Of a stretch of 64,000 nucleotides of DNA, positions 14,229-35,302 are shown one piece after another. A program made the position numbers and the translations under genes. The stretch's first letter is position 1. Each line of letters opens with the position of its first letter. The notes under the pieces are model-generated. The model searched no databases. It was not told the DNA's origin and saw only the letters and a program-made list of their open reading frames with translations. This DNA comes from Patescibacteria group bacterium (GTDB lineage: Bacteria; Patescibacteriota; Microgenomatia; UBA8517): NCBI GenBank assembly GCA_038061225.1, contig JBBTZT010000003.1:257515-321514 (forward strand), read 5' to 3'.

Positions 14229-15056
14229 ATGAGGGATAAATATAAAGCAGTTTGGGTCAGTCACTCTTCAATTTCTGATTTTTTAGCCTGTCCAAGGAGC
14301 TATTATCTTAGAAATGTATATAAAGATCCAAAAACTGGTCATAAAATTACTGTTACTTCTCCCGCACTTTCTTTAGGTTCTGCTGTTCATGAAGTTATTG
14401 AAGGATTGTCAGTTTTAGCTGTTGAAGATAGACTTAAAACACCACTTCTAAAAAAATTTGATATAGCTTGGCAAAAAGTTAGTGGCAAAGTTGGTGGATT
14501 TAAAGATAAAAAACAGGAAGATGAATTTAAAGAAAGAGGGAGAGAAATGCTTAAAAGAGTAGAAAGTCATCCTGGCCCAATTTTAAAAAAAGCAGTAAAA
14601 ATAGCTACTGATTTTTTACCAAATTATTATCTTTCAGAAGAAGATGATATAATTCTTTGTGGAAAAATTGATTGGCTTGAATATTTAGAAGATTCAGATT
14701 CAGTGCATATTATTGACTTTAAAACTGGAAAAAACGAAGAGAATGATGAATCATTACAACTCCCAATTTATTTACTTCTTGCAACAAACACACAAAATAG
14801 AAAAGTTGAAAAAGCTTCATATTGGTATATGAATAAATCTGACGATTTAGTAGAAAAAAGTCTTCCAAATATTGTGGATAGTAAAGATAAAGTGTTGACG
14901 GTTGCAAGAAGAATTAAACTAGCTCGTCAACTTAACCATTTTGTTTGTCCAACAAAAGGTTGTATGAAATGTAGACCATTAGAGCGAATTTTAAAAAGTG
15001 AGGGAGAAAAAGTAGGAGTATCTGACACAAAACAAGATATTTATATATTAGATTGA
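14229..15056 (+). CDS. Cas4-like / RecB-family PD-(D/E)XK nuclease with a 4-Cys (Fe-S) cluster
   Basis: N-terminal Cys in FLACPRSYYL; GKIDWLEY...VHIIDFKTGK (D...DxK); QLPIY (QxxxY); C-terminal CPTKGCMKC (C-x4-C-x2-C). Confidence 0.7.
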   Translation: MRDKYKAVWVSHSSISDFLACPRSYYLRNVYKDPKTGHKITVTSPALSLGSAVHEVIEGLSVLAVEDRLKTPLLKKFDIAWQKVSGKVGGFKDKKQEDEFKERGREMLKRVESHPGPILKKAVKIATDFLPNYYLSEEDDIILCGKIDWLEYLEDSDSVHIIDFKTGKNEENDESLQLPIYLLLATNTQNRKVEKASYWYMNKSDDLVEKSLPNIVDSKDKVLTVARRIKLARQLNHFVCPTKGCMKCRPLERILKSEGEKVGVSDTKQDIYILD

Positions 15057-15078
15057 TTAAAAATGGTATTATAAAAAC

Positions 15079-15780
15079 ATGTCATTGCTACCGTTTATAA
15101 AAGATGATGATTTTATATCAGAGGTAAAAAAAGTTTTAGAGGTGGATAAAAATGATTCAAGAAAAAACAAGTCAATAAGAAATTCTATAGACCCTTTTTC
15201 AGCAATATTTGATGCATCAATTCAAAGCATCCCGATTAATTTGTGGTTTGAACTTGAGGCTAGAAGACAATCTCAAAAAACCCTTCAAAATAAACTTGGA
15301 TTATTTCATCAGAATATATTAGGCCATGTAAGAGGGTGGATCAACTTAAATACTGGAAAGGTAGTTGATTTACTAAACACCAAAAAGAAGGTAATTGCTG
15401 AAGTTAAAAACAAATTTAACACAACTAAAGGTTCAGATAAAGTTCAAATTTATGATAACATCAAATTTTTATTAGATACAAAATACAAAGGATATGTTGG
15501 TTACTATGTTGAAGTGATACCACAAAATAAGAAAATGTACGATTCTGAATTTACTCCATCAGATAATAAGATCAAAAAAAGAAGACCAAGAAACAAAAAT
15601 ATTAGAATCATAGACGGATCCAGTTTCTATGACTTAGCTACAGGATATAATGACTCATTGTTTATGTTGTATATGGCAATACCAGAAGCTATTACAAAGA
15701 TATTAAAAATTCCTGTAATGAATATTCTAGGCAAGAACGAAATGCTAGAACTTTATAAAGAGGTATATCAAACAAAGTAA
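15079..15780 (+). CDS. putative Type II restriction endonuclease (PD-(D/E)XK-like)
   Basis: 233-aa ORF immediately upstream of a C5-MTase gene. Candidate catalytic motif VVDLL-x9-AEVKNK (D...ExK). No database match could be run. Confidence 0.45.
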   Translation: MSLLPFIKDDDFISEVKKVLEVDKNDSRKNKSIRNSIDPFSAIFDASIQSIPINLWFELEARRQSQKTLQNKLGLFHQNILGHVRGWINLNTGKVVDLLNTKKKVIAEVKNKFNTTKGSDKVQIYDNIKFLLDTKYKGYVGYYVEVIPQNKKMYDSEFTPSDNKIKKRRPRNKNIRIIDGSSFYDLATGYNDSLFMLYMAIPEAITKILKIPVMNILGKNEMLELYKEVYQTK

Positions 15781-15818
15781 CCATTGCATAATGTATTGGT
15801 TATTGATATATTTTATTC

Positions 15819-17114
15819 ATGGATAACTTGCTCACTGTTTCAGATGCGGCCGAATTGGTTGGAGTTTCTACCGATACAATTCGAAGATGGGAAAAGGTTG
15901 GACTTCTTAAATCTCATCGTTCGGAACATAATTATCGTCTTTTCAATTTTGAGGAAATTCAAAGAGTTAGAAATAAAATTAATGGTAGTGATCAGATTAA
16001 CAATTATAAAATTCTCAAAAGCAACAAAACGACTAAATATACAACAATAGAATTGTTTACAGGAGCTGGAGGTACAGCTTTAGGGTTAGAAAATGCAGGA
16101 TTAAAACATTTATTAAATGTTGAATTCGATAAAGATGCAATAAACACAATAAAAAATAATAAACCTGAATGGAACTTAATTGGTAACGATATTTCAGAAG
16201 TTGATTTTAATTCATGGAAAAATAAAGTTGACGTAGTCGAGGGTGGATTTCCATGCCAGTCTTTTAGTTACGCAGGAAAAGGGAAAGGATTCGGAGATAC
16301 TCGTGGTACTTTGTTTTTTGAATTCGCCCGTTGTGTTAAAGAAACAATGCCAAAAATAGCAATTGGTGAAAATGTTAAAGGTTTATTAAGACATGATAAT
16401 GGTAAAACATTATCTACTATGGTTAAAAAACTTCAAGATATTGGTTACAAAGTTGGTTATAAAGTTTTAAGGTCTCAATACCATGATGTACCACAGAAAC
16501 GAGAGAGATTGATAATTATTGGGATAAGAAATGATTTAAATATACCAATGTTAGTTCCAAGAGAAAAAGACTATTACATTTCTATAAAAGAGGCACTAAA
16601 AAATGTTCCTTTATCAAAAGGACAAAATTATCCTGAAAAGAAGAGAAAGGTTTTAGATTTGGTTCCTCCCGGAGGTTGTTGGAGAAATTTACCGCTTGAT
16701 ATTCAAAGAGAATATATGGGCGCTAGTTTTTATTTAGGTGGGGGTAAAACAGGAATGGCAAGAAGACTGTCTTTTGATGAGCCATCATTAACGCTTACTT
16801 GTTCTCCTGCCCAGAAGCAAACTGAAAGATGTCATCCCGTTGAAACAAGACCTTTTACCGTGCGTGAATATGCCAGAATACAAACTTTTCCTGACGATTG
16901 GGAATTTTGTGGTTCTTTGACTTCCCAGTATAAACAAATTGGAAATGCAGTCCCTGTTAACTTAGGTTTTCATATTGGGGAGGCTATAATTGCTATGTTA
17001 CAAAATAAGTATGATTTAAATGATATGGAAATAATCGAGCCTGTAATTTTAGAAAATAATGAAAATCATATATTAAGTAACAACTTTTTATATGTCCAAG
17101 AAAACATATTTTAA
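15819..17114 (+). CDS. DNA (cytosine-5)-methyltransferase with an N-terminal MerR-like HTH domain
   Basis: Motif I ELFTGAGGTALG, motif IV GGFPCQSFS, ENV, motif X QIGNAVPV. The N-terminus LLTVSDAAELVGVSTDTIRRWEKVGLL is a MerR/excisionase-type HTH. Confidence 0.9.
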   Translation: MDNLLTVSDAAELVGVSTDTIRRWEKVGLLKSHRSEHNYRLFNFEEIQRVRNKINGSDQINNYKILKSNKTTKYTTIELFTGAGGTALGLENAGLKHLLNVEFDKDAINTIKNNKPEWNLIGNDISEVDFNSWKNKVDVVEGGFPCQSFSYAGKGKGFGDTRGTLFFEFARCVKETMPKIAIGENVKGLLRHDNGKTLSTMVKKLQDIGYKVGYKVLRSQYHDVPQKRERLIIIGIRNDLNIPMLVPREKDYYISIKEALKNVPLSKGQNYPEKKRKVLDLVPPGGCWRNLPLDIQREYMGASFYLGGGKTGMARRLSFDEPSLTLTCSPAQKQTERCHPVETRPFTVREYARIQTFPDDWEFCGSLTSQYKQIGNAVPVNLGFHIGEAIIAMLQNKYDLNDMEIIEPVILENNENHILSNNFLYVQENIF

Positions 17115-17395: not shown

Positions 17396-17510
17396 AAAGA
17401 TCATTATTAAATTTAATTCAATCCTATATTTAAATAAAATAAGATGTTAAGATTAGAATTGCGTCTCAGAAGAAATTAAGGATTAGATTGTACTATTTTC
17501 CATAATTTTG

Positions 17511-17581
17511 AGCTGGTGAGTGTAATCGAAACACTGTCGATGGTTTACGATACCACTGCTCTACCACTGAGCTACACCAGC
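17511..17581 (-). tRNA. tRNA-Thr (anticodon CGU)
   Basis: The reverse complement reads GCTGGTGTAGCTCAGTGGTAGAGCAGTGGTATCGTAAACCATCGACAGTGTTTCGATTACACTCACCAGC. Anticodon loop ATCGTAA; T-loop TTCGATT. Confidence 0.85.
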
Positions 17582-18553: not shown

Positions 18554-19585
18554 ATGTCAAACGTAATAAAATGCAAGAATTGTGGAACTGAAATAGATGT
18601 TGGAGAGCAATTGGCTCATGATATTAAAGAATCTGTTGTTCTTGAGGAAAGAAAAAAAGCACAAGAAGAAGTAGATATTGTACGACGAAAGTTCAATACT
18701 GATATGGGCAAGCTTCTTGACGAAATTAAAACTTTGCGTGAGAAAGATCAAATGAGAGATTTGGAAATGAAGAAAAAACTTCTAGAAAGTGAGGAAACAA
18801 TTAAAAATGATTTAAAAATTAAACTTGAAGATGAACATAGATTAAAAGATTTGGAAAATTATAAGAAAATGCAAGATGTTTTGAAAGCTAATGAAGAATT
18901 AAAAAGAAAATTAGAACAAGGATCACAACAAACACAAGGTGAAGTATTAGAACTAACTATAGAGAAAAAATTACGTCAGGATTATCCACAAGATGAAATA
19001 AAAGAAGTTAAAAAGGGAGTAAAAGGAGCTGATGTTATCCAAATTGTTATTGATAAAAAAGGGCAAAAATGTGGAAGCTTACTTTGGGAATCAAAAAATG
19101 CTAAGTGGAGTGAAACATGGATAACAAAACTTAAAGAAGATCAAAGACAGGCCAAGGCAGACCTAGCTATACTTGTCTCAGTTGATTTGCCAGAAGACAT
19201 TAAAGAAAAAGGAATTGGTTATAAAAACGGTATTTGGATATGTGGTGCAACTAATTTTAATCAACTGGCAATGTCTTTAAGATTTAATTTAGTTAATATT
19301 TACTATGAAAAACAAAACGCTGTAGGAGTAGATGAGAAAATGAAAGTACTATATGAGTATTTAACAGGAAATGAATTTAAACATAGAGTAGAGGGAATTG
19401 TGGAAGCTTTTGGAACACTTCAGGACGACATCGAAAGAGAAAAAAGGTGGTTTAGTGCAAAATGGGCAAGACAAGAAAAAGAAATTAGAAAAGTAATTGA
19501 TCATACACATGGAATGTATGGTGATCTTCAAGGTGTTACAGGTAGGGCACTTCCTGAAATAAAATCATTGGAATTAGAAGAATAA
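18554..19585 (+). CDS. DUF2130-like protein: N-terminal CxxC, long coiled coil, C-terminal restriction-endonuclease-like (PD-(D/E)XK-like) domain
   Basis: CKNCGTEI at the N-terminus; an E/K-rich heptad region about 100 aa long; C-terminal GADVIQIV...LLWESKNAKWS (D...ExK-like). Assigned to DUF2130 from memory of the family architecture. Confidence 0.45.
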   Translation: MSNVIKCKNCGTEIDVGEQLAHDIKESVVLEERKKAQEEVDIVRRKFNTDMGKLLDEIKTLREKDQMRDLEMKKKLLESEETIKNDLKIKLEDEHRLKDLENYKKMQDVLKANEELKRKLEQGSQQTQGEVLELTIEKKLRQDYPQDEIKEVKKGVKGADVIQIVIDKKGQKCGSLLWESKNAKWSETWITKLKEDQRQAKADLAILVSVDLPEDIKEKGIGYKNGIWICGATNFNQLAMSLRFNLVNIYYEKQNAVGVDEKMKVLYEYLTGNEFKHRVEGIVEAFGTLQDDIEREKRWFSAKWARQEKEIRKVIDHTHGMYGDLQGVTGRALPEIKSLELEE

Positions 19586-19627: not shown

Positions 19628-20624
19628 ATGACAACTTCTAAAATTAAAATTCAAAATAATACTTTCAAAGAAGTGATGATTTACCAGACTCCAGACAAGA
19701 GTGTAAAAGTCGAGATTTATTTAAAGGATGAAAATTTATGGCTAACTCAGATTAGAATAGCTGAATTGTTTGGCGTTGAAAGAAGTGTTGTCACAAAGCA
19801 TTTAAAGAATATTTTTTATGAACGAGAGTTAGATTTAAAAAGCAATGTGCAAAAAATGCACATTGCTAAGTCTGATAAACCAGTTAAATACTATAATCTT
19901 AATGTAATTATTGCTGTTGGGTATAGAATCAACTCAATTAAGGCCACAAAATTTCGTATTTGGGCTACTCAAGTTTTAAAGGAATACATAGGACGATGAA
20001 AGATTAAAAGATCCTGATCAAATATTTGGTAAGGATTACTTTGAAGAGCAGCTCGCGAGAATCAGAAATATCCGTTCAAGCGAGAGAAGGATGTATCAAA
20101 AGATTACTGATATCTATGCAGAATGCAGTGCCGACTATGATCCAAATAGTGATATGACCAAAGACTTTTTTGCTACAGTTCAGAATAAACTGCATTTTGC
20201 TATTACTGGTCAAACCGCCGCAGAAATTATAGCTAAGAGAATTGGTAATAAAAAGTTAAATATGGGATTAACAAATTGGAAAAATGGACCAAAAGGCAAA
20301 ATTAGAGAAACTGATGTGGTAATTGCAAAGAATTATTTAAATGAAATAGAGCTGGATAAATTAAACAGAATTGTAACTGTTTACTTAGATTATGCAGATA
20401 TGATGGCAAAAGATAGGATTGTTATATATATGGAAGATTGGATCAAGAAACTGGATGCTTTTCTTAAATTTAGTGAGAAGGACATACTTTCAGATAATGG
20501 AAAAGTAAGTTATGAAGTTGCAGAACAATTGGCATTGGGAGAATATAAAAAGTTTAGAATTAAACAAGACAAAAATTATATCTCAGATTTTGATAGAGAA
20601 GTTAAAAAACTTTTAAAAAAATAG
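19628..20624 (+). pseudogene. rhuM: rhuM-family (virulence RhuM) gene disrupted by a frameshifting deletion
   Basis: ORF 19628-19999 carries the RhuM N-terminal part (...QIRIAELFGVERSVVTKHLKNIF...). ORF 20091-20624 carries the C-terminal part (YQKITDIYA...). The +1-frame translation of the gap (DDERLKDPDQIFGKDYFEEQLARIRNIRSSERR) is also RhuM. About 14 nt encoding IKGFVL appear to be missing at about 19990. Confidence 0.75.
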
Positions 20625-21064: not shown

Positions 21065-21259
21065 ATGCCAAAAGACGATAAAAGGTTGCCGGAACTATTA
21101 ACCATTGCGCAGGTGGCGAAAATTCTTAATGTCCACCCGACTACGCTTAGGCGGTGGGATAAGAAAGGAAAGTTAAAAGCCATTCGTGTAGGCACGAGAC
21201 GCGGTGTTGGCGAAAGACGCTATCACCGAGAGGATATTATAAAGTTAATAACAAAGTAA
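21065..21259 (+). CDS. excisionase-family HTH DNA-binding protein (Xis/AlpA-like)
   Basis: LLTIAQVAKILNVHPTTLRRWDKKGKLKAIRVGTRRGVGERRYHREDI matches the excisionase-family HTH consensus. Confidence 0.75.
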   Translation: MPKDDKRLPELLTIAQVAKILNVHPTTLRRWDKKGKLKAIRVGTRRGVGERRYHREDIIKLITK

Positions 21260-21263
21260 ATTT

Positions 21264-24200
21264 ATGTATACGCCGAATAAATCAATTATTGATAATGATA
21301 AAATTAAGCTCTTTACAGAGTTAAAGAACATTCTTAATGACCAGCCTAGCAACTTTGACGTAGCTACCGGCTATTTTAATGTTGGAGGCTTCGAGTTAGT
21401 CGCCCAAGAAATAAAAAATGTCAAAAAGTTCAGATTATTACTTGGAAAGTCACCAAGTGTTGATGACAAGTTGGTACCGGATTTATTCGAGCCAGTAGCG
21501 TTTTATAAGACCAATCTTAAAGAAGACCTCGAAAACGAAGAATTTACCTCTAAAAAGTCTCAGGCGGTCAAAAACCTCATAGCTTTTCTTGAAAAGCAGG
21601 ATGTTGAAGTTAAACTACTGGAAAAACCCTTTCTTCATGGCAAGGCTTACATTTTTAATGATCTGGCTATCATTGGCTCTAGCAACTTCACTTATTCGGG
21701 ACTTGCCGGCAATACAGAATTAAACGCAGTGCTCATTGATCCGCACCCCGTTTATCTTAAAAAAGAATGGTTTGATAAGTTTTGGGAGCAAGCCCGCGAT
21801 TTTAAGCAAGAGCTTATTGAAATCCTCAAAAGCTCAAAGTTAGGTACAAGGGAATACTCGCCTTACGAAGTTTATATTAAAGCGCTCTATGAACTTCAAA
21901 AGAAAGAGCTGGAACCTACGGAAGCCCCCAGAAACGAGCGTTTGCCCGAAAGCGTAGTAGATTTAGCAACATTTCAAGAAGACGCGGTTAATCGTGTGTA
22001 CTCATCGCTCACCAACTATAATGGCGTCTTAGTTGCTGATTCTGTCGGTCTTGGTAAAACATGGATTGCAAAAAAAGTCATTGAGGACTTTGGTTTTTAT
22101 AGAAGACGTAAGTTCTTGGTTATATGTCCAGCTTCACTTCACCGAATGTGGCAAGCTGAGCTTAAAGACTTGGGTGTTTCAGAAAATATCATCCATCAAG
22201 AGTATTTAGGAGGAGAAGGCTTGGACTTTGAAGATTTAGAGAAACGCCATCAGATAAAGTTTGCCGATATCTCCCTCATTGTAATTGACGAGTCTCACAA
22301 CTTCAGAAATCCCATATCTAACCGCTATGAAAACCTTTTTTCACTTATAGAAAAAATTCGCTCATTCGGTAAAACCCCAAAGGTAATTTTAATGACTGCA
22401 ACTCCAATGAATAACACTATTTGGGACTTTTACTTTCAACTTATGCTTATTGGTCAAAACAATAAGCGCATGTTTATTAAGCAAGGAATTTTTGACTTGC
22501 AAAAAGAGTTTAGCAAAGCCCAGAAAGGAAATACCAACCACATTAACGATGTTTTGCAATCAATCTCCATTCGTAGAACACGCCAATATATTAGAGAAAA
22601 CTACAAAGATGCAAAATTCAAAACAGAGACAGGGGAATACAAAAAGATTGAATTCCCAGATAGAAAACTGGAAGAAGTACACTATTCTCTTGATAAAGCC
22701 TATGATGGCCTCTATGCCGAGATTTCGCGCAAGATAGAAGCCGATTTGACTCTTGCTTACTACAAACTCTCCGAGTACAAAGTATCCGAGAAAAAAGATT
22801 TAGTAGAAGTCCACAGAGGACAGGCTTTAGCCGGTATCTTCCAAACAGTTCTTCTAAAAAGATTGGAAAGTTCAGTCGAGGCATTTCGCAAAAGCGTTAA
22901 AAGCCACAAAGAGTTCTTGGGTGAATTTAAAAATGTTGTCCAGAAAGGGAAAATACTACGCAAAAAGTTCTTCCTAAAATACATAAACAGTTTAGATGAA
23001 TCAATCGAGGATATAGATGGCTTGGGAGACTTTGGTAATAGCTTGGAAGATATAGACCTTAAAGACTACGACAAAGAGAAGATGTTTGCTGATATTGACC
23101 AAGATATTAAGGTTTTTTCAACTATTTATGAAGATATAAAAAATATAGATGAAAGCCAAGATGCAAAACTTATTAAATTTAAGGAACATTTACTCAAAAA
23201 TCTTAAAGAGGAAAAAGCCGTTATCTTCTCCTACTACTCCGACACTGTTAAGTATGTCGCTCAAGCATTAGATAAAGATGAGGATTTTAAGAAAAAGTAT
23301 GGTAAGAAGATAGCTTTCATTACTGGTGCTAATTCTTCAAACGAGCGCCAGACTATTATTGAAGATTTCTTAAACGGCAAGACAAATGTTGTTATTTCAA
23401 CCGATATTCTCTCCGAAGGTCAAAACTTGCAACAAGCAAAAACAGTTACTAATTACGATTTACATTGGAATCCGGTGAGAATGATTCAAAGAGCGGGAAG
23501 AATTGACCGTATTGGTACCCCTTTCAAAGAAATTATTATCTATAACTTTTACCCAGAGGATGAGTTGGAATCGCTCCTTGATCTAGTAGAAACCTTACAG
23601 AAAAAAATTATGATGATTAACGATACCATTGGTCTTGACGCCTCTGTTTTAGGTGAGCAGATAAACCCTAAAGTATTTGGTATTATACGGGACTTAAAAA
23701 GTGAGGAAGAAGAAACGAAAGATAAGACAATGGAACTTTTGGAAGCCGAGCAGTTCGGAGGCGGAGAACTTTTCTTCCAGCCCCTGAAAAACTTTGGACT
23801 GGATAAACTCCCCGCGTTTGCCGATGGTTTGCCTCACGGAATACAAAGTGGACTAAAGAAGGGTTATAGAGGCATTTTCTTTTATTTCCAGTATGCAGAG
23901 GAGTATCACTTCTGGTACCTGTACGATTTAATTGACAAAGAATTTAAAACCAACAAGACAGAAATTTTAGACTTTATAGCCTGCAAGCAAGTTGAGCGTC
24001 GAGTTGTCCCCGAAGATTACGATGTTTATTCAGCTCACGATGAAGTAAAAAATCGTATTGCAGAGCTTTTTAATGAAACAAGGTTTGAGGTTGAAATGCG
24101 TACTCCCTCCGGTAAGAAAGAAAAGTTTTTAATTGATATGCGGGATGAATTGGAACATATAAAAACAGAGGTTTTGTTTGAAGAAGATCAAAAGGAGAGA

Positions 24201-24431
24201 ACAAAAATAGAAGAAATTGTTACTAAGATAAACGAGGTCAACTTTACTAAAAAGCGTTTGCAGTATTTAAGGCGTTCTTGGCAGGCTTACAAAAAATCAC
24301 ATCAGAACTGGCGAAAACTGGTTGCAGAGCTTGGTGACTTTTTAGCGGACAAGGTTGAAACACCAACAGAAATTATTGAGGAATTTAATGACAAGAAACT
24401 CAAACTTATTTGCGTTGATTATATTTCATGA
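21264..24431 (+). CDS. fusion of an N-terminal PLD-family (HKD) nuclease domain and an SNF2-family helicase
   Basis: PLD motif FLHGKAYIFNDLAIIGSSNFT (HxK..D..GSxN). SNF2 motifs LVADSVGLGKTW (I), VIDESHNFRN (II), LMTATPMNN (III), ISTDILSEGQNLQ (V) and NPVRMIQRAGRIDRIG (VI). Confidence 0.85.
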   Translation: MYTPNKSIIDNDKIKLFTELKNILNDQPSNFDVATGYFNVGGFELVAQEIKNVKKFRLLLGKSPSVDDKLVPDLFEPVAFYKTNLKEDLENEEFTSKKSQAVKNLIAFLEKQDVEVKLLEKPFLHGKAYIFNDLAIIGSSNFTYSGLAGNTELNAVLIDPHPVYLKKEWFDKFWEQARDFKQELIEILKSSKLGTREYSPYEVYIKALYELQKKELEPTEAPRNERLPESVVDLATFQEDAVNRVYSSLTNYNGVLVADSVGLGKTWIAKKVIEDFGFYRRRKFLVICPASLHRMWQAELKDLGVSENIIHQEYLGGEGLDFEDLEKRHQIKFADISLIVIDESHNFRNPISNRYENLFSLIEKIRSFGKTPKVILMTATPMNNTIWDFYFQLMLIGQNNKRMFIKQGIFDLQKEFSKAQKGNTNHINDVLQSISIRRTRQYIRENYKDAKFKTETGEYKKIEFPDRKLEEVHYSLDKAYDGLYAEISRKIEADLTLAYYKLSEYKVSEKKDLVEVHRGQALAGIFQTVLLKRLESSVEAFRKSVKSHKEFLGEFKNVVQKGKILRKKFFLKYINSLDESIEDIDGLGDFGNSLEDIDLKDYDKEKMFADIDQDIKVFSTIYEDIKNIDESQDAKLIKFKEHLLKNLKEEKAVIFSYYSDTVKYVAQALDKDEDFKKKYGKKIAFITGANSSNERQTIIEDFLNGKTNVVISTDILSEGQNLQQAKTVTNYDLHWNPVRMIQRAGRIDRIGTPFKEIIIYNFYPEDELESLLDLVETLQKKIMMINDTIGLDASVLGEQINPKVFGIIRDLKSEEEETKDKTMELLEAEQFGGGELFFQPLKNFGLDKLPAFADGLPHGIQSGLKKGYRGIFFYFQYAEEYHFWYLYDLIDKEFKTNKTEILDFIACKQVERRVVPEDYDVYSAHDEVKNRIAELFNETRFEVEMRTPSGKKEKFLIDMRDELEHIKTEVLFEEDQKERTKIEEIVTKINEVNFTKKRLQYLRRSWQAYKKSHQNWRKLVAELGDFLADKVETPTEIIEEFNDKKLKLICVDYIS

Positions 24432-24434
24432 GTT

Positions 24435-27400
24435 ATGGGAACAAATATAGACTTAGACGAATTTTTGCCAACAATGGATGCACCGGACAAGGTGTATCAA
24501 CTTTTCGAATCTCTTGGTTTTAAGGTACTCGATTCTCACCTCAAGACAAACCCGTCAGTTTATAACTTACCGGTCAAAGAAGCCGCATTAGTTGAGAAGA
24601 TTTATGCAGTCTCAAATTATGACCGCCGTTTTCAGATTCTTTTATTTAAACTCAAAGAGGAAAACAAAGAAGCAATCCGTACAATACCGGAGAAAATTTT
24701 ACGCGAGGTAGACTTCCCTTTCATTATCTTTACCCCAGATTTTAAGACTTACACTTTTACTCTTGTTGAAAAAGTCCGTGAGGGACCCGGAGAGTTCAAA
24801 CGCAAACTCACAAAACTTGTAGTTGATAGCAGTCAGCCCTATCACACGGACAAAGAAATACTAGGAAGCCTTGCGCTATCTGTTGATACCAAAAACCCCG
24901 TTGAGGTTTATAAAATGTTTCAAAGCGCTTTTAGCGTTGAGAAAGTCACTAAGAAATTCTTTACCGAATATCGGGAAGTTTTTGAAAGATTAGTAGGAGA
25001 AGTTACTAAGCAGAATAAGCACCTGAAATTTACGCTTTTTTCCAGAGATGCTTCTGTAGAAAACTTTGTCAAAATACTTTTAGGTCGTTTAATGTTTCTC
25101 TACTTTATACAAAAGAGGGGCTGGCTTAACTGCTTTGATGGTTGGGGTAGCGGAGATAAAAAGTTTCTCTATAATAAATTTCAAGAGGCAAAGAAAGAAA
25201 AGAAAAACTATTTTAAGGATTACCTCGAACCGCTTTTCTTTGACACTCTCAACAATCCCCGCCGCGATAAGCCAGATCAAGCAACACAGTTTGGCGGTAG
25301 AATCCCTTTCCTAAACGGAGGACTATTTGAACCAGAGTACGACTATCAAGATGTAAGAAATCACATACTTTTAGAAAACTCCACCTTTGATGATGTTTTC
25401 TCGGTTTTTGAGAAATATAACTTTACTGTTAAAGAGGATGAGCCGCTTGAAAAAGAAGTAGCCATTGACCCTGAAATGTTGGGTAAGGTTTTTGAAAATC
25501 TCTTGGAGGAAAACTTACGTAAAGGCAAGGGCACGTATTACACCCCTCGAGAAATCGTCCACTACATGTGCCATGAAAGCCTTATAAACTATCTGGCTTC
25601 CGAAGTTAGCCTAGATCAAGATGTGATAAGGAATTTCTTGGATCGTGAGCAGTCCCTAGAAAAGAAGGAAACTTTAAGTTCTGCTATAAGAGAGAAAGCA
25701 AAGGAAATAGACGAAAAATTAGCTGATATTAAGGTTTTAGACCCTGCCTGCGGTTCTGGCGCTTTCTTGGTTGGTATGCTCCACGAAGTTATAAATGCCC
25801 GCCTAAGTCTTAATCGGGAGCTTGGGCGCAGTCTCTCGGAGTATGAAGTTAAAAAAGCAACAATTCAAAATAATATCTATGGTGTAGATATTGACCCCGG
25901 AGCTTCTGAAATTGCCAAACTTCGTTTATGGTTGACACTTGTTGTTGACCACAATCTCTCCGAAATAGAACCGCTCCCTAATCTTGACTATAAAATTATG
26001 GTCGGTAATTCACTACTCGATGAATTTATGGGCGTAAAACTCTTTAATCCCGAGAACGCAAAAGCTCAAGCAAATGGTAAGAAAATGATTAGTCTTTTTG
26101 ACGAAGATTCACAAGTTTCACTCTTTGAAAATGATGATAAAAAAACAAGTGTCCTAAAAGCCTTGCAAGGGCTACATGCTTTATATTTCAAAGAGTCTGA
26201 CCCCGAAAAGAAGAAGCAAATTAGAACTCAAATAGACAAGATTGAGTTTGATCTTATCGAGGCAACTGTTAATGATGAAGTATCACAACTGGAAAGAAAA
26301 ACTAAAGGAATTGTTGAACCGTATTTGTCTCATGGTATAGGAATTCCAGCGAAAGAAGCGGAGAGAATTTCAAAACTAAGTTCTCAACAAGGACAGATTT
26401 TAGAAACTTTTAATGAGATAAAGAAAAGTAATGTTAAACCATTTTTCTTGTTTCAACTCCATTTCTCCGATGTTTTTGAAAAGAAAGGCGGGTTTGATAT
26501 TGTTATCGCAAACCCACCTTATATGAAAGAGAGAGATAATAAAAAGGTTTTTGAAATAGTCAATAATTCTAGTTTTGGTAAAAAGTATCATCAAGGGAAA
26601 ATGGATTACTGGTATTATTTCTTGCATAAAGCTATTGATATCACAAAAGATAACGGGTTCATCTCCTATATAACGTCTCGGTACTGGATAAATAGTTATG
26701 GTGCAAAAAAACTTATTGAAAGAGTTAATAAAGAGTTATCTTTTGTAAACTTCGTTGATATTGGTAAGTTGAAGGTATTTGATGAAGTAGCTGGCTACCA
26801 TATGATTGCTGTTTATAAAAAGACAGTAGATATTGATCTGTTTACTTATAAAAAACTTCAAAACGAAATTAGTGATATAAGTAAAAGTTCTAATACTGAA
26901 AACCTAGAAATAAAAACATTATCAAAGAAGGAAATATTTACTGATAATGACGAGATTATTTTGGAAACCGATGGTTTAAAATATGATAATGTTGTTTTAT
27001 TAGGTTCAATCGCAGATACCTCGGTTGGAGTTCAAGAATCCCCTGACAAAATTAATAGTAAGCTCCTTCTAAGTGCAAAGCGAACAGATATATCTGTTGG
27101 TGATGGTGTTTTTGTTTTATCGCAAAAAGAATTAGATAACCTACGGCTAAAAGAGATTGGCCGACTGCCAATAATTAAAAAATATTTAGACCCTAATGAT
27201 GTGTACCGTTATCGAGTTAGTTGGAAAAGTAAGTATCTCATTTATTCTGACAATAAAATTAAGGAGGACATTAAAAGTAACAAGGAATACATTAGTATCA
27301 AGAATCATTTAGACAAATTTAGAGAATTTATTTCCTCTTCAAACAAGCCTTACGGGTTACATAGATCACGCGACATAAAGTATTTTATAGAACCCAAGAT

Positions 27401-27827
27401 TATATTTAAAAATATGTTTATCATGCCCGATTTTACCTACGATGATAAAGGATACTTTTTTGGATTTTCTTTTTCTTCAATAATTCAAAAAGATAAAACT
27501 TTTGACTTGAAATACATTCTAGGTATTTTAAATTCAAAAGTTGCATTTAATTGGTTCCAAAAGAACGGAAAAAGAAGGGGTGCTGGGTTTGATATTGGTG
27601 TTGAAAAACTAAGGCTTTTTCCGATCAAGAAAATTACGCTCCAAGAACAAAAACCAATTATCGAAATTGTCGACAAACTTCTAGATATCACAAAAGATGG
27701 TGATTATTTACAAAACCCCACAAGGCAAACTCAAGTTAAAGACTACGAAAAGCAAATTGACCAGTTAGTTTATAAACTCTATGGCCTAACGCCGGAGGAA
27801 ATTTTAGTTGTGGAGGATCAAAAATGA
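24435..27827 (+). CDS. large gamma-class N6-adenine DNA methyltransferase with a C-terminal TRD-like region (type IIG/Eco57I-like, PglX/DrmMI-like)
   Basis: Motif I VLDPACGSGAFLVGM followed by motif IV VIANPPYMKE (gamma order). N-terminal helical region with ILLGRLMFLYFIQKRGWL. C-terminal YKLYGLTPEEILVVE, typical of the type IIG/PglX family. 1130 aa. Confidence 0.85.
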   Translation: MGTNIDLDEFLPTMDAPDKVYQLFESLGFKVLDSHLKTNPSVYNLPVKEAALVEKIYAVSNYDRRFQILLFKLKEENKEAIRTIPEKILREVDFPFIIFTPDFKTYTFTLVEKVREGPGEFKRKLTKLVVDSSQPYHTDKEILGSLALSVDTKNPVEVYKMFQSAFSVEKVTKKFFTEYREVFERLVGEVTKQNKHLKFTLFSRDASVENFVKILLGRLMFLYFIQKRGWLNCFDGWGSGDKKFLYNKFQEAKKEKKNYFKDYLEPLFFDTLNNPRRDKPDQATQFGGRIPFLNGGLFEPEYDYQDVRNHILLENSTFDDVFSVFEKYNFTVKEDEPLEKEVAIDPEMLGKVFENLLEENLRKGKGTYYTPREIVHYMCHESLINYLASEVSLDQDVIRNFLDREQSLEKKETLSSAIREKAKEIDEKLADIKVLDPACGSGAFLVGMLHEVINARLSLNRELGRSLSEYEVKKATIQNNIYGVDIDPGASEIAKLRLWLTLVVDHNLSEIEPLPNLDYKIMVGNSLLDEFMGVKLFNPENAKAQANGKKMISLFDEDSQVSLFENDDKKTSVLKALQGLHALYFKESDPEKKKQIRTQIDKIEFDLIEATVNDEVSQLERKTKGIVEPYLSHGIGIPAKEAERISKLSSQQGQILETFNEIKKSNVKPFFLFQLHFSDVFEKKGGFDIVIANPPYMKERDNKKVFEIVNNSSFGKKYHQGKMDYWYYFLHKAIDITKDNGFISYITSRYWINSYGAKKLIERVNKELSFVNFVDIGKLKVFDEVAGYHMIAVYKKTVDIDLFTYKKLQNEISDISKSSNTENLEIKTLSKKEIFTDNDEIILETDGLKYDNVVLLGSIADTSVGVQESPDKINSKLLLSAKRTDISVGDGVFVLSQKELDNLRLKEIGRLPIIKKYLDPNDVYRYRVSWKSKYLIYSDNKIKEDIKSNKEYISIKNHLDKFREFISSSNKPYGLHRSRDIKYFIEPKIIFKNMFIMPDFTYDDKGYFFGFSFSSIIQKDKTFDLKYILGILNSKVAFNWFQKNGKRRGAGFDIGVEKLRLFPIKKITLQEQKPIIEIVDKLLDITKDGDYLQNPTRQTQVKDYEKQIDQLVYKLYGLTPEEILVVEDQK

Positions 27828-28855
27828 AAGCAGCAGAAAAACCAAAATATGTTCAAGAAGCACGGAAGTTACTAACTTCAATTGACATTAACCATTTGAT
27901 TTCAAACCCTAATGACCTCAGGGAAATAGACAAAATTAATCGTCTAGTAGCTATTTTTACTAACTTTTCTTCCAATGATGGTCAAGAATTGAAAAGACTC
28001 TTTCAAGAATTTCAAGAGACAGGAAGACGTAGTACTAGTTCGGGAACTATCAAAAATAGAGCCGTAGATGTAATCCAATTTATTGGCCAGAAGATTGAAG
28101 AAATGGATATTTATGTTATAGAACCTGATGAGAAACCACTATTAGAGACGCTGGAAAAATTAAGAAAAATTCAAAAACTAATTCAGGAAGGTTTAGCTCG
28201 GAGTGATGAAAAAACACAAATTATACGGGAGGCTCAAGAAAAATCTAAGTTGTTTAAGGACGATATCTACAAAAGGAAAGCGGAAAAGCTTTCAAAACAG
28301 ACCGTTTGGTCAAAGCAGAGTCATGATGGTTTCGTGGCCGCAGATGAATATGGCCAATTAACTCCTTGGATAGAATTGCTTGAAGATTATTTGGGAGAAG
28401 AAAAGCTCTTAATAAGAGAAAAGGTTATTGAAGATACAACCCCGTATGAAGGAAGAAAATTTCTGAGGTCTATCTTAGAGAAGGCTAACAATGAAGTGGT
28501 TGTGGTTGATAATTTTCTTTCCCACGAGATTTTGGCAATTATTGAACCATATGTATTAAAGGGGGTAGGCTTTAGGTTACTGACACGACAGGCGCACAAT
28601 AGTAAATTTAGGAGTTTTACAGCTGATTATAAAGTCTTTAGACTTCAGCACCAAAATAAAATAGCCGCCAAGGAAAACAAAAAATGCCATGACCGCTTTG
28701 TGATGGTTGATGGTCATATCATATATCATTTCGGAGCCAGCTTAGTTGAATTGGGAAATACCTTATCTGTGGCTCATTTAATTGAAGATCAAAAAGAGAA
28801 AGATAAACTGTTATCTAAATTTACCGATTGGTGGGATACGGGAAAGGACGTTTAA
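27824..28855 (+). CDS. hypothetical protein with a C-terminal degenerate PLD-like (HxRxxxxD...GAS) domain
   Basis: C-terminal HDRFVMVDGHIIYHFGASLVELGN aligns with HxKx4Dx6GSxN but has K->R. Preceded by VVVVDNFLSHEILAIIE. The N-terminal 200 aa are helical and unknown. Its start overlaps the MTase stop by 4 nt. Confidence 0.45.
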   Translation: MKAAEKPKYVQEARKLLTSIDINHLISNPNDLREIDKINRLVAIFTNFSSNDGQELKRLFQEFQETGRRSTSSGTIKNRAVDVIQFIGQKIEEMDIYVIEPDEKPLLETLEKLRKIQKLIQEGLARSDEKTQIIREAQEKSKLFKDDIYKRKAEKLSKQTVWSKQSHDGFVAADEYGQLTPWIELLEDYLGEEKLLIREKVIEDTTPYEGRKFLRSILEKANNEVVVVDNFLSHEILAIIEPYVLKGVGFRLLTRQAHNSKFRSFTADYKVFRLQHQNKIAAKENKKCHDRFVMVDGHIIYHFGASLVELGNTLSVAHLIEDQKEKDKLLSKFTDWWDTGKDV

Positions 28856-28867
28856 GTTTTAATAATC

Positions 28868-30313
28868 ATGGATATTACAGATATCACTGGCTATACATTA
28901 AAAAATCTTAGCAAAATTAACATTGTTTTAGGGAAAAATGGTTGCGGTAAAAGCACACTGTTACGATCAGTTGAACAAGGTTTATCTTCGCAATCGCAGT
29001 CGTATGGAAAAACAAAATACATAACACCGGAAAGAGGAGGATCTCTTATTTATGAAGCTGGTATTGAACAGAGTTTAACAACCGATATAAATTGGCTTTC
29101 AGGTCAAAGGAGAAAAAATCAAGCTGTTGGTTTTAGACAACAAAGCGTAGCTCAGTATCGCAGACTTGAAACTTTGGTATTAAGAGAAATAGAAAAGGAA
29201 AAACGACAACAAAACGATTACACCTTCGACATTTATGTTAATAAAATCAACTCTTTGCTTGACAATATTGAAATAAAAAGACATGATATGACTTTCAAAA
29301 TATACCATAGAGGAACAATCAATGAATTAGGGGCAGAAGTAATCAGCAGTGGCGAAAGCGAACTGATTTCCTTGGGTATTGAATGTTTAATTTTTGGCAA
29401 AGAGTGTATTCCGGACAAAGAAAATATTTTATTTTTAGATGAGCCAGACGTACATTTACACCCAGATTTACAGGTTCGTTTAATGAATTTCCTAGAAGGT
29501 TTGGTTTCGGATAGTAACTTCAAAGTTTTAATTGCCACACACAGTACTGCTATTTTGGGAGCGTTGGAAACTTACACTGATACTCACTTGGCGTTTATGT
29601 CCTTTGAGCAGAAAGAGCTAAACTTTAGAGAAATTTCAGCAGTTTATAGAAAAGTTCTGCCCGTTTTTGGAGCACACCCCTTGTCTAATATTTTCAACGA
29701 AGCACCAATCTTACTTGTTGAAGGTGAGGATGACGAAAGAATTTGGCAACAAGCTGTCCGATCTTCTAATGGCACTATTAAATTATATCCCTGTTCTGTA
29801 GATAGTGTGAGTAATATAAACGATTTTGAACAGGAAGCAAAAGAGATTATTCAATCTGTTTATGACAAAGCCAAAGGTTATTCATTGAGAGATAAGGACA
29901 ATAACACTGAAGAAATCAATGATCTGCCGCCGATAATCAGAATGAGACTAGCATGCAGAAACTCGGAAAACCTTTTGCTTACGGACGAGGTACTTGGAGC
30001 ACTTAATATAACATGGGATCAACTTAAAGAGCGTATTGATATTTGGTTGAGTACCAATACACAACATCCTCACTTTTCGGTTATGAATGGGTTTAAGGAA
30101 GGCGGATACGATAGAAGAAACTTTGATATTAAAGAAGTGCGTAACGATTTAATGGGTGTTGTTGGAAGCGCAAAACCTTGGGAAGTTGTAGTGGGTCAAT
30201 CAATTTCAAGTCTGACTTGGGATGACAGTTCTAATTTTGAGGAAGATGGAAAAATTCTATCCTTTCTTGGACGAAAGATTACAGAAAATCTTATCCCTAA
30301 ATCGAGTAGATGA
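28868..30313 (+). CDS. OLD-family ATP-dependent endonuclease (AAA_21/ABC-type ATPase + TOPRIM)
   Basis: Walker A GKNGCGKSTLL; signature-like ISSGESEL; Walker B ILFLDEPDVHLHPD; TOPRIM-like ILLVEGEDDERIW with downstream acidic residues (VDSVSN). Confidence 0.75.
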   Translation: MDITDITGYTLKNLSKINIVLGKNGCGKSTLLRSVEQGLSSQSQSYGKTKYITPERGGSLIYEAGIEQSLTTDINWLSGQRRKNQAVGFRQQSVAQYRRLETLVLREIEKEKRQQNDYTFDIYVNKINSLLDNIEIKRHDMTFKIYHRGTINELGAEVISSGESELISLGIECLIFGKECIPDKENILFLDEPDVHLHPDLQVRLMNFLEGLVSDSNFKVLIATHSTAILGALETYTDTHLAFMSFEQKELNFREISAVYRKVLPVFGAHPLSNIFNEAPILLVEGEDDERIWQQAVRSSNGTIKLYPCSVDSVSNINDFEQEAKEIIQSVYDKAKGYSLRDKDNNTEEINDLPPIIRMRLACRNSENLLLTDEVLGALNITWDQLKERIDIWLSTNTQHPHFSVMNGFKEGGYDRRNFDIKEVRNDLMGVVGSAKPWEVVVGQSISSLTWDDSSNFEEDGKILSFLGRKITENLIPKSSR

Positions 30314-30358: not shown

Positions 30359-31006
30359 ATGAATAACTTATTTATTTTCCAGTTACCTATAGATTTAGCC
30401 TCATCACTTACTGGAGGTGCTATTGGGTTAATATTAGCTTTTGGACTTTACCTTTTTGATAAGTCAATTAACCCCGACCTAGAAATACAGATAGCCGATC
30501 CGTCAAAACTATCATTGGCTCAAGGTGAATTTAAGTCTCTAAATTTAAAAATAATTAACAAAAAGAGAGACGGCATTTTACGATTTTTGAATAGATCAGC
30601 AACTCAAGTTAAGGTATTTCTTTACTTTTCAGACTTTTCTTCAAGAGTGCTTATGAATACAGTGATAGCTAGGTGGAACAATAGTCGAGAACCGCTAACT
30701 CCGGATTATAAAAATGTTGATCTTGGACTTGCTCTTACACACCCTAGAGAGGTTCTCGTACCTGGTGATGAAAATGAAATCTCTGTGGCTATTCGGAAAA
30801 AAGATAATAGATACTGCTTCCCTTTCAGCAACGAAAGCTACATATATCAAAGTAAAGACTTTGAGGTTCCTGGTTGGAAAATTGAAGATGATAAATTTGT
30901 CGTTACTGTGCGCATACAGTCAGCTGAAGTTGATAAAATGGGTGGCGTGTTTATTGTGCTAAATAAAAGTACATTAGAGCAGTTTAAGATCGAAAAAATA
31001 GGATAA
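30359..31006 (+). CDS. hypothetical membrane-anchored protein (single N-terminal TM)
   Basis: 215 aa; TM at about 17-33 (LTGGAIGLILAFGLYLF); no motif. Lies 45 bp downstream of the OLD-family gene. Confidence 0.4.
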   Translation: MNNLFIFQLPIDLASSLTGGAIGLILAFGLYLFDKSINPDLEIQIADPSKLSLAQGEFKSLNLKIINKKRDGILRFLNRSATQVKVFLYFSDFSSRVLMNTVIARWNNSREPLTPDYKNVDLGLALTHPREVLVPGDENEISVAIRKKDNRYCFPFSNESYIYQSKDFEVPGWKIEDDKFVVTVRIQSAEVDKMGGVFIVLNKSTLEQFKIEKIG

Positions 31007-31041: not shown

Positions 31042-31302
31042 ATGAAACGAATTGATGCATACGCACTCGCTAGATTTCTTATATTAGTTGCCTTGCTTAT
31101 TGGTGTCATCTATACGGGTTCTAAAATTGACACTCTTAGCAAGCGACTAGAAAGAATTGAGGCAAAACTTGGTGGTCCCGAAAAAATCGGTTGTAATGAG
31201 AAGGATTCTATCGAGAAAGTTCGCCAGTCTGTTGTCCGGATTGTAGGCGGAGAGGGCGAAGGTTCTGGTTTATCACCGTATGGAGCAGTGGACCGGATTT
31301 GA
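31042..31302 (+). CDS. small membrane protein; possible N-terminal remnant of a trypsin-like (HtrA-type) protease
   Basis: TM helix, then ...VRQSVVRIVGGEGEGSGL, resembling the start of an S1C protease domain. The ORF's last ~22 nt (including its stop codon) overlap the tRNA-Gly 3' end. Confidence 0.3.
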   Translation: MKRIDAYALARFLILVALLIGVIYTGSKIDTLSKRLERIEAKLGGPEKIGCNEKDSIEKVRQSVVRIVGGEGEGSGLSPYGAVDRI

Positions 31303-31355
31303 ACCGGCGACCTTCTGCTTGGGAAGCAGACATTCTACCGCTGAACTACCACTGC
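31281..31355 (-). tRNA. tRNA-Gly (anticodon CCC), CCA encoded
   Basis: The reverse complement reads GCAGTGGTAGTTCAGCGGTAGAATGTCTGCTTCCCAAGCAGAAGGTCGCCGGTTCAAATCCGGTCCACTGCTCCA. Confidence 0.85.
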
Positions 31356-34863: not shown

Positions 34864-35085
34864 TTGGGTATGTCAAAAACAGACTTGAAAGCTATGGTGT
34901 GGAAAGAAGAAAATTGGTTCGTGGCCAAAGCTCTTGGCCTGGAAGTTGCTAGTCAAGGTAAAACTAGAAAGGAGGCAATTAAAAATCTTCAAGAGGCAGT
35001 TGATTTGTTATTAGAAAATGAGGATTTAAAAATTCCAAACTATTTTGTACCAAATAATCCTCAAATAAGAGCCATATATGCCTAA
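34864..35085 (+). CDS. HicB-like antitoxin (UPF0150)
   Basis: WFVAKALGLEVASQGKTRKEAIKNLQEAVDLLLE resembles the HicB/UPF0150 fold. It overlaps the next gene by 8 nt. Confidence 0.55.
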   Translation: MGMSKTDLKAMVWKEENWFVAKALGLEVASQGKTRKEAIKNLQEAVDLLLENEDLKIPNYFVPNNPQIRAIYA

Positions 35086-35302
35086 ATTATATAATTCAAG
35101 AGAAACGGTGAAAGCATTTCAAAGAGCTAAATTCGTTAAAATAGTACAAAAAGGAAGTCATCTTAAAATGCGAGGGTTTTGGAATGGTAAAATTCAAACT
35201 ATAATTATTCCAATGCATAAACAAATTGCTTTTGGAACATTTCAAAGCATTTTAAACCAAGCCGGAATGTCAAAATTAGAATTTGAACAATTTTTAAAAT
35301 AA
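35078..35302 (+). CDS. HicA-like mRNA interferase toxin (YcfA family)
   Basis: KVVKAFQRAKFVKIVQKGSHLKM matches the HicA consensus (...GW...RQKGSH..F). Confidence 0.6.
   Translation: MPKLYNSRETVKAFQRAKFVKIVQKGSHLKMRGFWNGKIQTIIIPMHKQIAFGTFQSILNQAGMSKLEFEQFLK

Follow-up and report, generated by a model that had tools for sequence, protein, structure and literature searches.

The 64,000-nucleotide stretch analysed here (the window) comes from a Patescibacteria group bacterium (GenBank assembly GCA_038061225.1, contig JBBTZT010000003.1, positions 257,515 to 321,514), and its contig originates from the Hainich groundwater metagenome. The window contains a tightly spaced, co-directional run of genes on the forward strand that encode, in order, a helix-turn-helix (HTH) protein, a fusion of a phospholipase D (PLD) nuclease with an SNF2 motor, a large adenine methylase, a 343-residue protein, an ABC/OLD-type ATPase and a 215-residue protein. 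The subject of this report is the methylase (the query), its N-terminal domain and its relationship with the PLD-SNF2 protein encoded directly upstream. The nearest genome is a metagenome-assembled genome of Candidatus Woesebacteria, a member of the candidate phyla radiation (CPR), whose methylase (locus L014) is 93% identical across residues 1–340. The features of the pair, with the HTH gene that precedes it, are as follows.

21065..21259, forward strand: HTH_17/MerR-type DNA-binding protein of 64 residues (Pfam HTH_17 5.8e-13, MerR 1.4e-10)
21264..24431, forward strand: PLD(HKD)-SNF2 fusion of 1055 residues (Pfam PLDc_2, SNF2-rel_dom, ResIII, Helicase_C)
24435..27827, forward strand: methylase open reading frame (ORF) of 1130 residues
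24435..24839, forward strand: methylase N-terminal domain, residues 1–135, an alpha/beta fold like that of restriction endonucleases but lacking a conserved catalytic constellation; proposed as the docking module for the helicase
24615..24656, forward strand: residues 61–74, N-Y-D-R-R-F-Q-I-L-L-F-K-L-K, a hairpin collinear with MmeI D70-x9-E80-x-K82 (hhalign, low probability)
24732..24776, forward strand: TPDFKTYTFTLVEKV, residues 100–114, a strand-turn-strand element and not a catalytic motif
24840..25454, forward strand: helical domain, residues ~136–340, with homology to the helical spacer of MmeI and to the N-domains of PglX and HsdM
25512..26834, forward strand: gamma-class N6-adenine methyltransferase (MTase) core, residues ~360–800, with a coiled insertion (Pfam Eco57I 3.8e-30, MmeI_Mtase, N6_Mtase)
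27180..27626, forward strand: TaqI_C-type target-recognition domain (TRD), residues 916–1064 (Pfam TaqI_C 7.3e-15)

The 1130-residue ORF described in an earlier note on this DNA is present, and its methylase motifs are intact (YYTP at residue 368, DPACGSG at 436 and NPPY at 693). Its layout is that of Type IIG/IIL enzymes, with nuclease-fold, MmeI/PglX/HsdM-type helical, gamma N6-adenine MTase and TaqI_C recognition domains. As in the MmeI family, the MTase core and the C-terminal TRD lie in one polypeptide and a helical spacer stands between the nuclease-fold and MTase domains. Searches of PDB sequences matched the MTase regions of CamA, PglX and MmeI. The earlier note had likened the N-terminal ~330 residues as a whole to MmeI and PglX; this likeness holds for residues ~136–340, where Pfam MmeI_hel matches the query only at E 0.008 and its relatives at 8e-5 at best. 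It is not confirmed for residues 1–135, and the resemblance to PglX is confined to the helical domain.

The AlphaFold2 model of the N-terminal 340 residues, built with 94 homologues, is confident, with a predicted local distance difference test score (pLDDT) of 88.5. Within residues 1–135 it places strands at 53–62, 66–73, 94–100, 105–117 and 120–131 and helices at 17–26 and 78–88, after which the helical domain begins. The modelled fold resembles the nuclease domains of DrdV and BpuSI. At the level of sequence, residues 1–135 have no match in Pfam, PADLOC or PDB sequences, Pfam MmeI_N does not match the query, and a family profile run against PDB sequences gave no N-domain match; its hit to MmeI, with an E-value no better than 0.17, lies in the helical motif. 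Among 1.84 billion representatives searched, only 46 clusters carry this N-domain, here called clade A, and in all credible matches it forms the N-terminus of a protein of ~950–1300 residues or of a fragment of one. Most homologues retrieved with residues 1–340 carry a different N-domain and constitute a sister group, clade B. When N-domain-only alignments of either clade were compared by hhalign with an MmeI-family alignment built from 120 homologues, the matches were non-collinear and not significant (4–7% probability), and homology of residues 1–135 to MmeI_N is therefore not demonstrable by sequence; nor does the query N-domain have significant sequence similarity to those of MmeI (5HR4) and DrdV (7LO5).

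The D-x9-ExK triad that defines the MmeI family is not found in the query. In the low-confidence hhalign alignment, MmeI E80-M-K82 falls on K72-L-K74 of the query, so that the glutamate is replaced by K72 and the aspartate by N61; this residue mapping is weak, being based on a profile alignment of low probability and on the order in which the secondary-structure elements follow one another. Residue counts for clade A refer to 32 aligned sequences, the query and 31 representatives. Position 72 is glutamate in 19 and position 74 lysine in 14 of them, and the complete triad is found in one of the 32 clade A sequences and in none of the 81 from clade B. A conserved canonical D...ExK in such an alignment, which would have spoken for a live nuclease, was thus looked for and not found.

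Clade B has a pattern of its own, with the consensus ...KDAALVAF..PD..DWRFSxVKM(E/D)YK... and conservation of D67, D93, (D/E)112 and (K/R)114 in query numbering (all four in 48 of 81 sequences, the three acids in 67 of 81). By strand pairing, these four residues would cluster. The clade B N-domain may contain a real nuclease site of a non-MmeI type, although these proteins are also paired with PLD-SNF2; there would then be two nucleases per system. The query has Q67, D93, E112 and V114 at these positions. Under either mapping (61/72/74 or 67/93/112/114), its N-domain has no plausible active site, and the domain is a nuclease fold that has lost any recognisable one. D93...E112 was considered as a canonical PD...ExK on adjacent strands; this is plausible for clade B but was rejected for clade A, since D93 is present in only 4 of 32 sequences and V114 stands in place of the lysine. 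Members of clade B such as P0085, P0067 and P0060 (loci L009–L011) also keep an R-x-x-Q-R-N helix.

The earlier note had singled out TPDFKTYTFTLVEKV as the only PD-(D/E)XK-like stretch of the N-terminus and had reasoned that its shifted spacing makes the nuclease probably dead. The string is present at residues 100–114. However, residues 1–340 contain 10 matches to D-x(8-30)-[DE]xK against 8.4 ± 4.1 in shuffled sequences, and D-x9-EK occurs in 18% of the shuffles; both frequencies are at chance level, and the motif is therefore one of several and nothing unusual. The model puts D102 in the turn that joins strands 94–100 and 105–117, with E112 and K113 ten residues into the second of these strands and K113 on the face opposite to E112. 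Placed like this, D102 and E112/K113 cannot belong to a single site. Conservation in clade A is 28/32 for D102, 18/32 for E112 and 10/32 for K113, and D102 is probably conserved for structural reasons. In the low-confidence alignment the stretch pairs with MmeI 'CDFQRFRL', past the catalytic motif, rather than with D70-x9-E80-x-K82. The view of PD...EK as a catalytic relic thus falls, given its chance frequency, the lack of conservation of E112/K113 and the position of D102; the conclusion that there is no recognisable active site stands, on grounds other than the spacing of this string.

One alternative is that the methylase is a self-sufficient Type IIG/IIL enzyme with a non-canonical N-domain site, for example D93/E112 with a basic residue, and that PLD-SNF2 belongs to a separate system such as a SauUSI-like Type IV enzyme. 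MmeI-type enzymes cleave alone, without ATP or a helicase partner. The PADLOC model REase_MTase_IIG matches the query at E 1e-106, the N-domain fold is like those of the nuclease domains of DrdV and BpuSI, the model sets D93 and E112 side by side on adjacent strands, and clade B keeps D67/D93/(D/E)112 in the 67 of 81 sequences mentioned above. The match, however, covers the query from residue 149 onward and leaves the N-domain uncovered. The PADLOC model (PDLC03596) was built on clade B and matches the clade B N-domain at E 3e-55, and residues 1–150 of the query have no match to it or elsewhere in PADLOC. Clade A itself has D93 in 4 and E112 in 18 of 32 sequences, and there is no lysine on the face of E112, where V114 is found. 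These observations, together with those on the partner gene given below, make a self-sufficient enzyme unlikely.

The upstream gene encodes, as the earlier note had stated, a PLD nuclease fused to a translocase. Its motifs are intact (HGK at residue 125, GSSN at 138, GLGKT at 262 and DESH at 342), and the protein is a predicted ATP-driven double-stranded DNA translocase and nuclease effector. Its PADLOC matches include C3a139 'HKD+Snf2' (1.2e-55), a helicase family listed as a type III CRISPR-associated cluster, and DrmD (8.5e-44), whereas its NCBIfam matches are all far below cut-off. Among solved structures its best match is to the Sulfolobus SNF2/Rad54 motor 1Z63, and RapA is also among the matches. 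A recognisable modified-base reader domain, as might be expected of an independent Type IV enzyme, was not found in it by Pfam.

Relatives of the pair were sought in genome stretches (at least 561 of 600 scanned, one genome per species), and synteny was counted on the best 80 loci. A PLD-SNF2 homologue is encoded on the same strand in 62 of these 80 loci, in bacteria and archaea, 53 times upstream and 9 times downstream of the methylase, and 37 times adjacent to it. In 16 of the 18 loci without a homologue, the contig ends within ~4 kb of the methylase ORF on at least one side, which leaves only two loci, L069 and L072, that lack the helicase although more than 4 kb of sequence is available on both sides of the methylase. 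The partner sequences listed read H-A-K...GSSN throughout. Four metagenomic relatives, which cover both clades, show the pairing too. So do plasmids from cultured Nostoc, Deinococcus radiophilus and Lactococcus cremoris, in some cases with unrelated genes lying between methylase and helicase. On Deinococcus pRadio5 (L013, 12286-15196) a DUF262/GmrSD-like gene and a weakly RelA/SpoT-like gene lie between methylase and PLD-SNF2, and on Nostoc pANSO36A (L012, 5810-7610) two unknown genes do so; these embedded genes fit the published idea of defence genes nested within larger systems. The methylase homologue is split into two ORFs in a number of loci (L009, L010, L011, L005, L030, L046, L047, L062, L064, L077 and L093), which could reflect long-read assembly error, decay or phase variation.

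To compare the inheritance of the two proteins, each was divided into parts and similarity was scored across 60 loci. Similarity of the methylase N-domain (residues 1–135) tracks that of helicase residues 801–1055 with a Spearman coefficient of 0.84 (p 3.5e-17), in a set made up of a handful of clade A and ~50 clade B loci that are phylogenetically non-independent and whose scores include many ties at zero. For the helical, MTase and TRD parts, the correlation with the same helicase region is negative (-0.36 to -0.51). Since the one correlation is positive and the others are negative, the N-domain and helicase are inherited together while the methylase body is exchanged. The query locus is an example: N-domain and helicase are both of clade A, and the methylase body is nearer to clade B (e.g. 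L037, L017 and L053). The co-variation of the N-domain with the C-terminal part of the helicase suggests a docking interface. Near-obligate synteny and co-variation with the helicase would be unexpected for two independent systems, which further argues against a self-sufficient Type IIG enzyme.

Taken as a whole, the domain content, the intact motifs, the loss of catalytic residues in the N-domain, the conserved synteny and the co-variation make it probable that PLD-SNF2 and the methylase form a two-component defence system, ATP-dependent and restriction-modification-like, with the product of the HTH gene as its possible regulator. In such a system the methylase would recognise a short, probably asymmetric site and methylate host DNA at it. 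On unmodified DNA it would recruit or license PLD-SNF2, the likely contact being between the degenerate N-domain and the C-terminal region of the helicase, and the motor would then translocate along double-stranded DNA, powered by ATP. On dimerisation or collision, two motor protomers would join their single HKD motifs into one PLD active site and cut, as BfiI, SauUSI and MtsD do. The idea of outsourced cleavage in the earlier note, with the methylase responsible for recognition and modification, is therefore well supported by the synteny in 62 of 80 loci, by the intact PLD and motor motifs and, by analogy, by the MtsC/MtsD precedent of MANTIS. A wider reading may also be entertained, but as a tentative proposal that we hold short of an even chance: the pair would be a self-sufficient and widespread class of ATP-dependent restriction-modification systems, present in hundreds of species of bacteria and archaea, CPR among them, and currently labelled 'Type IIG', in which the relic nuclease fold serves as an adaptor that docks and licenses a translocating PLD nuclease, and in which adaptor and helicase C-terminus move together, as one block, from one methylase body to another.

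Several points weigh against the two-component reading. The physical interaction of methylase and PLD-SNF2 is something we infer from sequence comparison. The clade B domain is possibly an active nuclease, in which case outsourcing could be a lineage-specific trait and not one of the family. The composition of the locus set behind the correlation and the weakness of the MmeI residue mapping, both noted above, count on the same side. Finally, MANTIS, DISARM and ARMADA need extra components (DUF499/MtsB, DrmAB and a YprA-type helicase, respectively) that are absent here, and a system of two genes may be incomplete or dependent on the genes downstream.

The closest described counterpart is the orf33/orf34 pair of Lactococcus lactis plasmid pLd8, a PLD-SNF2 protein and a 'Type IIG' methylase analysed in silico (van Mastrigt 2018, PMC6098607), whose authors inferred that the PLD protein supplies cleavage, the methylase having no restriction domain (PMC6098607). 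The same gene pair was found among loci that carry inversions (Milman 2023, PMC9881135). Literature searches for a named system with this exact pair brought up in-silico mentions only, and an experimental test was not found. Like pLd8, the query locus has a co-directional PLD + SNF2 + Helicase_C gene and an Eco57I/TaqI_C methylase without a recognised restriction domain, and the arrangement is confirmed on a lactococcal relative, pJM1F. The lactococcal pair differs from that of the window in the sequence of the N-terminal ~200 residues and of the helicase (1233 residues), and its locus has an invertible TRD cassette, which the query locus is without. On L. cremoris pJM1F (L094, 8715-10182) an inverted gene of 263 residues with TaqI_C only and an Mpi-family invertase lie downstream of the methylase. 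This looks like a recognition-domain shufflon, which could switch the specificity of the PLD-SNF2/methylase pair. The idea that a PLD protein supplies cleavage is thus not new, having been raised for a lactococcal plasmid in 2018; the contribution of the present analysis is the synteny and co-variation evidence and the corrected key residues.

The proposed system is a minimal variant of known defences that combine methylation with a helicase-nuclease. At the level of domains it resembles class 1 DISARM (DrmD/DrmMI) and ARMADA (ArmA/ArmB), in which a Snf2-type helicase is paired with a large PglX/IIG-type adenine methylase, and the methylase matches PADLOC DrmMI at 1.2e-28. The DISARM core genes DrmA (DEAD helicase) and DrmB (DUF1998) were not found in the operon or its flanks, however, the PLD nuclease of DISARM is a separate protein (DrmC) rather than a part of the Snf2 protein, and the PLD-SNF2 protein scores 179 bits against NCBIfam DrmD, where the cut-off is 610. 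ARMADA comprises ArmA, ArmB and a YprA-type helicase, and the last was not found near the query pair. MANTIS / Gao_RL (BREX-related type 2) is a functional analogue, and the likeness would be in the division of labour, with a methylase that marks self DNA and a separate effector made of an N-terminal PLD and a superfamily 2 (SF2) helicase. MtsD of MANTIS is a solved precedent, a dimeric PLD-SF2 effector whose subunits share one PLD site and whose partner methyltransferase, MtsC, is a separate protein. The PLD-SNF2 protein has its domains in the same order. The top NCBIfam match of the helicase is 'phospholipD_antiphage' (NF042964; E 5.6e-54, 184 bits against a cut-off of 1100). Yet MANTIS has a DUF499 AAA+ ATPase, MtsA, and a small MtsB, neither of which was found at the query locus, where the 481-residue ATPase is of the ABC/OLD type (AAA_15/21). 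The methylases differ as well: that of MANTIS belongs to the alpha class, contains its TRD internally and has no nuclease-fold N-domain, whereas the query is gamma-class. BrxA/BrxB, BrxC/PglY, PglZ and BrxL of BREX were not found among the neighbours of the query, the query scores 118 bits against NCBIfam BREX_1_MTaseX (cut-off 500), and PglX, unlike the query, has no alpha/beta nuclease-fold domain ahead of its helices. In Hma (HmaABC) the Snf2 helicase has a C-terminal PD-(D/E)XK nuclease and is accompanied by a methylase and a DUF499-type ATPase; the nuclease of the window is an N-terminal PLD, and the PADLOC match to HmaA spans only the motor of PLD-SNF2.

If the two-component reading is true, many genes that REBASE-derived models and PADLOC file as single-protein Type IIG enzymes would be the recognition and modification half of a motor-driven pair. 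The pair would then be the smallest member of the helicase-methylase group of defences (DISARM, ARMADA, BREX-3 and MANTIS), a tractable model of how a methylase passes unmodified DNA to a translocating PLD nuclease, and a clear case of a dead nuclease fold retained as a protein-protein adaptor.

The remaining genes of the run and the tRNA genes that bracket the island in which it lies are the following.

27824..28855, forward strand: 343-residue protein whose C-terminal domain is weakly PLD-like (Pfam PLDc_2 E 0.0034, below cut-off; PADLOC PDC-S05 8.5e-21)
28868..30313, forward strand: ABC/OLD-type ATPase of 481 residues (AAA_15/AAA_21; AriA/PtuA/GajA-like; Pfam, PADLOC)
30359..31006, forward strand: 215-residue protein
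17510-17581, minus strand: tRNA-Thr, on one side of the island
31281-31355, minus strand: tRNA-Gly, on the other side of the island

The compact organisation raises the alternative that the whole cluster, from the HTH gene to the 215-residue gene, is a multi-component system related to Hma, MADS or BREX, whose second ATPase would serve to load or regulate the methylase. The start of the 343-residue gene overlaps the methylase stop by 4 nt, and a gap of 12 nt separates this gene from that of the ATPase. MANTIS requires a second ATPase for loading its methylase, there are weak PADLOC matches to mad2 and mad3, and locus L082 has a 343-residue-like gene between helicase and MTase. However, homologues of the 343-, 481- and 215-residue proteins are absent from 79, 79 and 80 of the 80 loci, respectively, and this includes the 93%-identical L014, where 5 kb of downstream sequence is present. 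Other loci hold unrelated genes at this place (DUF262, RelA/SpoT-like, Schlafen/AlbA_2 and DUF5131), which fits variable cassettes, and DUF499, DUF3780, PglZ and DUF1998 were not found by Pfam, PADLOC or NCBIfam. A multi-component system of this kind is accordingly rather improbable. The 343-residue and ATPase genes were rejected as conserved parts of the system for their absence from related loci, and the three downstream genes are treated as an accessory or embedded cassette and not as conserved partners of the methylase/PLD-SNF2 pair. The first two of them look like a separate two-gene module embedded behind the methylase. The PLD-like domain of the 343-residue protein reads HDRFVMVD...GASL (HxR), the PDC-S05 models that match this protein have N-terminal parts that also match nearby RhuM fragments, and the 481-residue ATPase has no Toprim match.

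It may also be asked whether restriction is involved at all: the methylase could be an orphan or have an epigenetic role, and the SNF2 protein could be a remodeller associated with repair or transcription. SNF2 proteins such as RapA, which is among the matches, serve housekeeping functions. Against this, the locus lies in a defence island with an Eco47II-type restriction-modification system, RhuM and the ABC/OLD-type ATPase, flanked by tRNA genes, nearly all partners join an intact nuclease-type HKD to the motor, and the pair is found on plasmids and, in Lactococcus, beside a recombinase that inverts the TRD. A role apart from restriction is thus very unlikely, and a defensive pair of methylase and PLD-SNF2 remains the preferred reading.

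As to the surroundings, the HTH gene ends 4 nt before the PLD-SNF2 start and is also called as a gene on the source contig; its product is possibly the regulator of the operon, a role that we infer. Promoter and terminator scans of 20.4–31.6 kb gave results at chance level. The G+C content is 0.37-0.38 at 22–26 kb and about 0.30 elsewhere, which suggests horizontal acquisition. The second restriction-modification system, upstream at 14229-17114, consists of a PDDEXK_1 protein, an Eco47II-family endonuclease and a C5-cytosine methylase with an N-terminal MerR-type HTH. The RhuM-family gene at 19628-20624 is present as two ORFs of 123 and 177 residues that correspond to the N- and C-terminal portions of the Pfam model; a frameshift has probably made it a pseudogene. 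Immediately upstream of it lies a DUF2130 gene (18554-19585). Farther downstream, a DUF7387/HicA-toxin pair (34870-35302) is located between LemA and an M48 peptidase in the annotation of the source contig.

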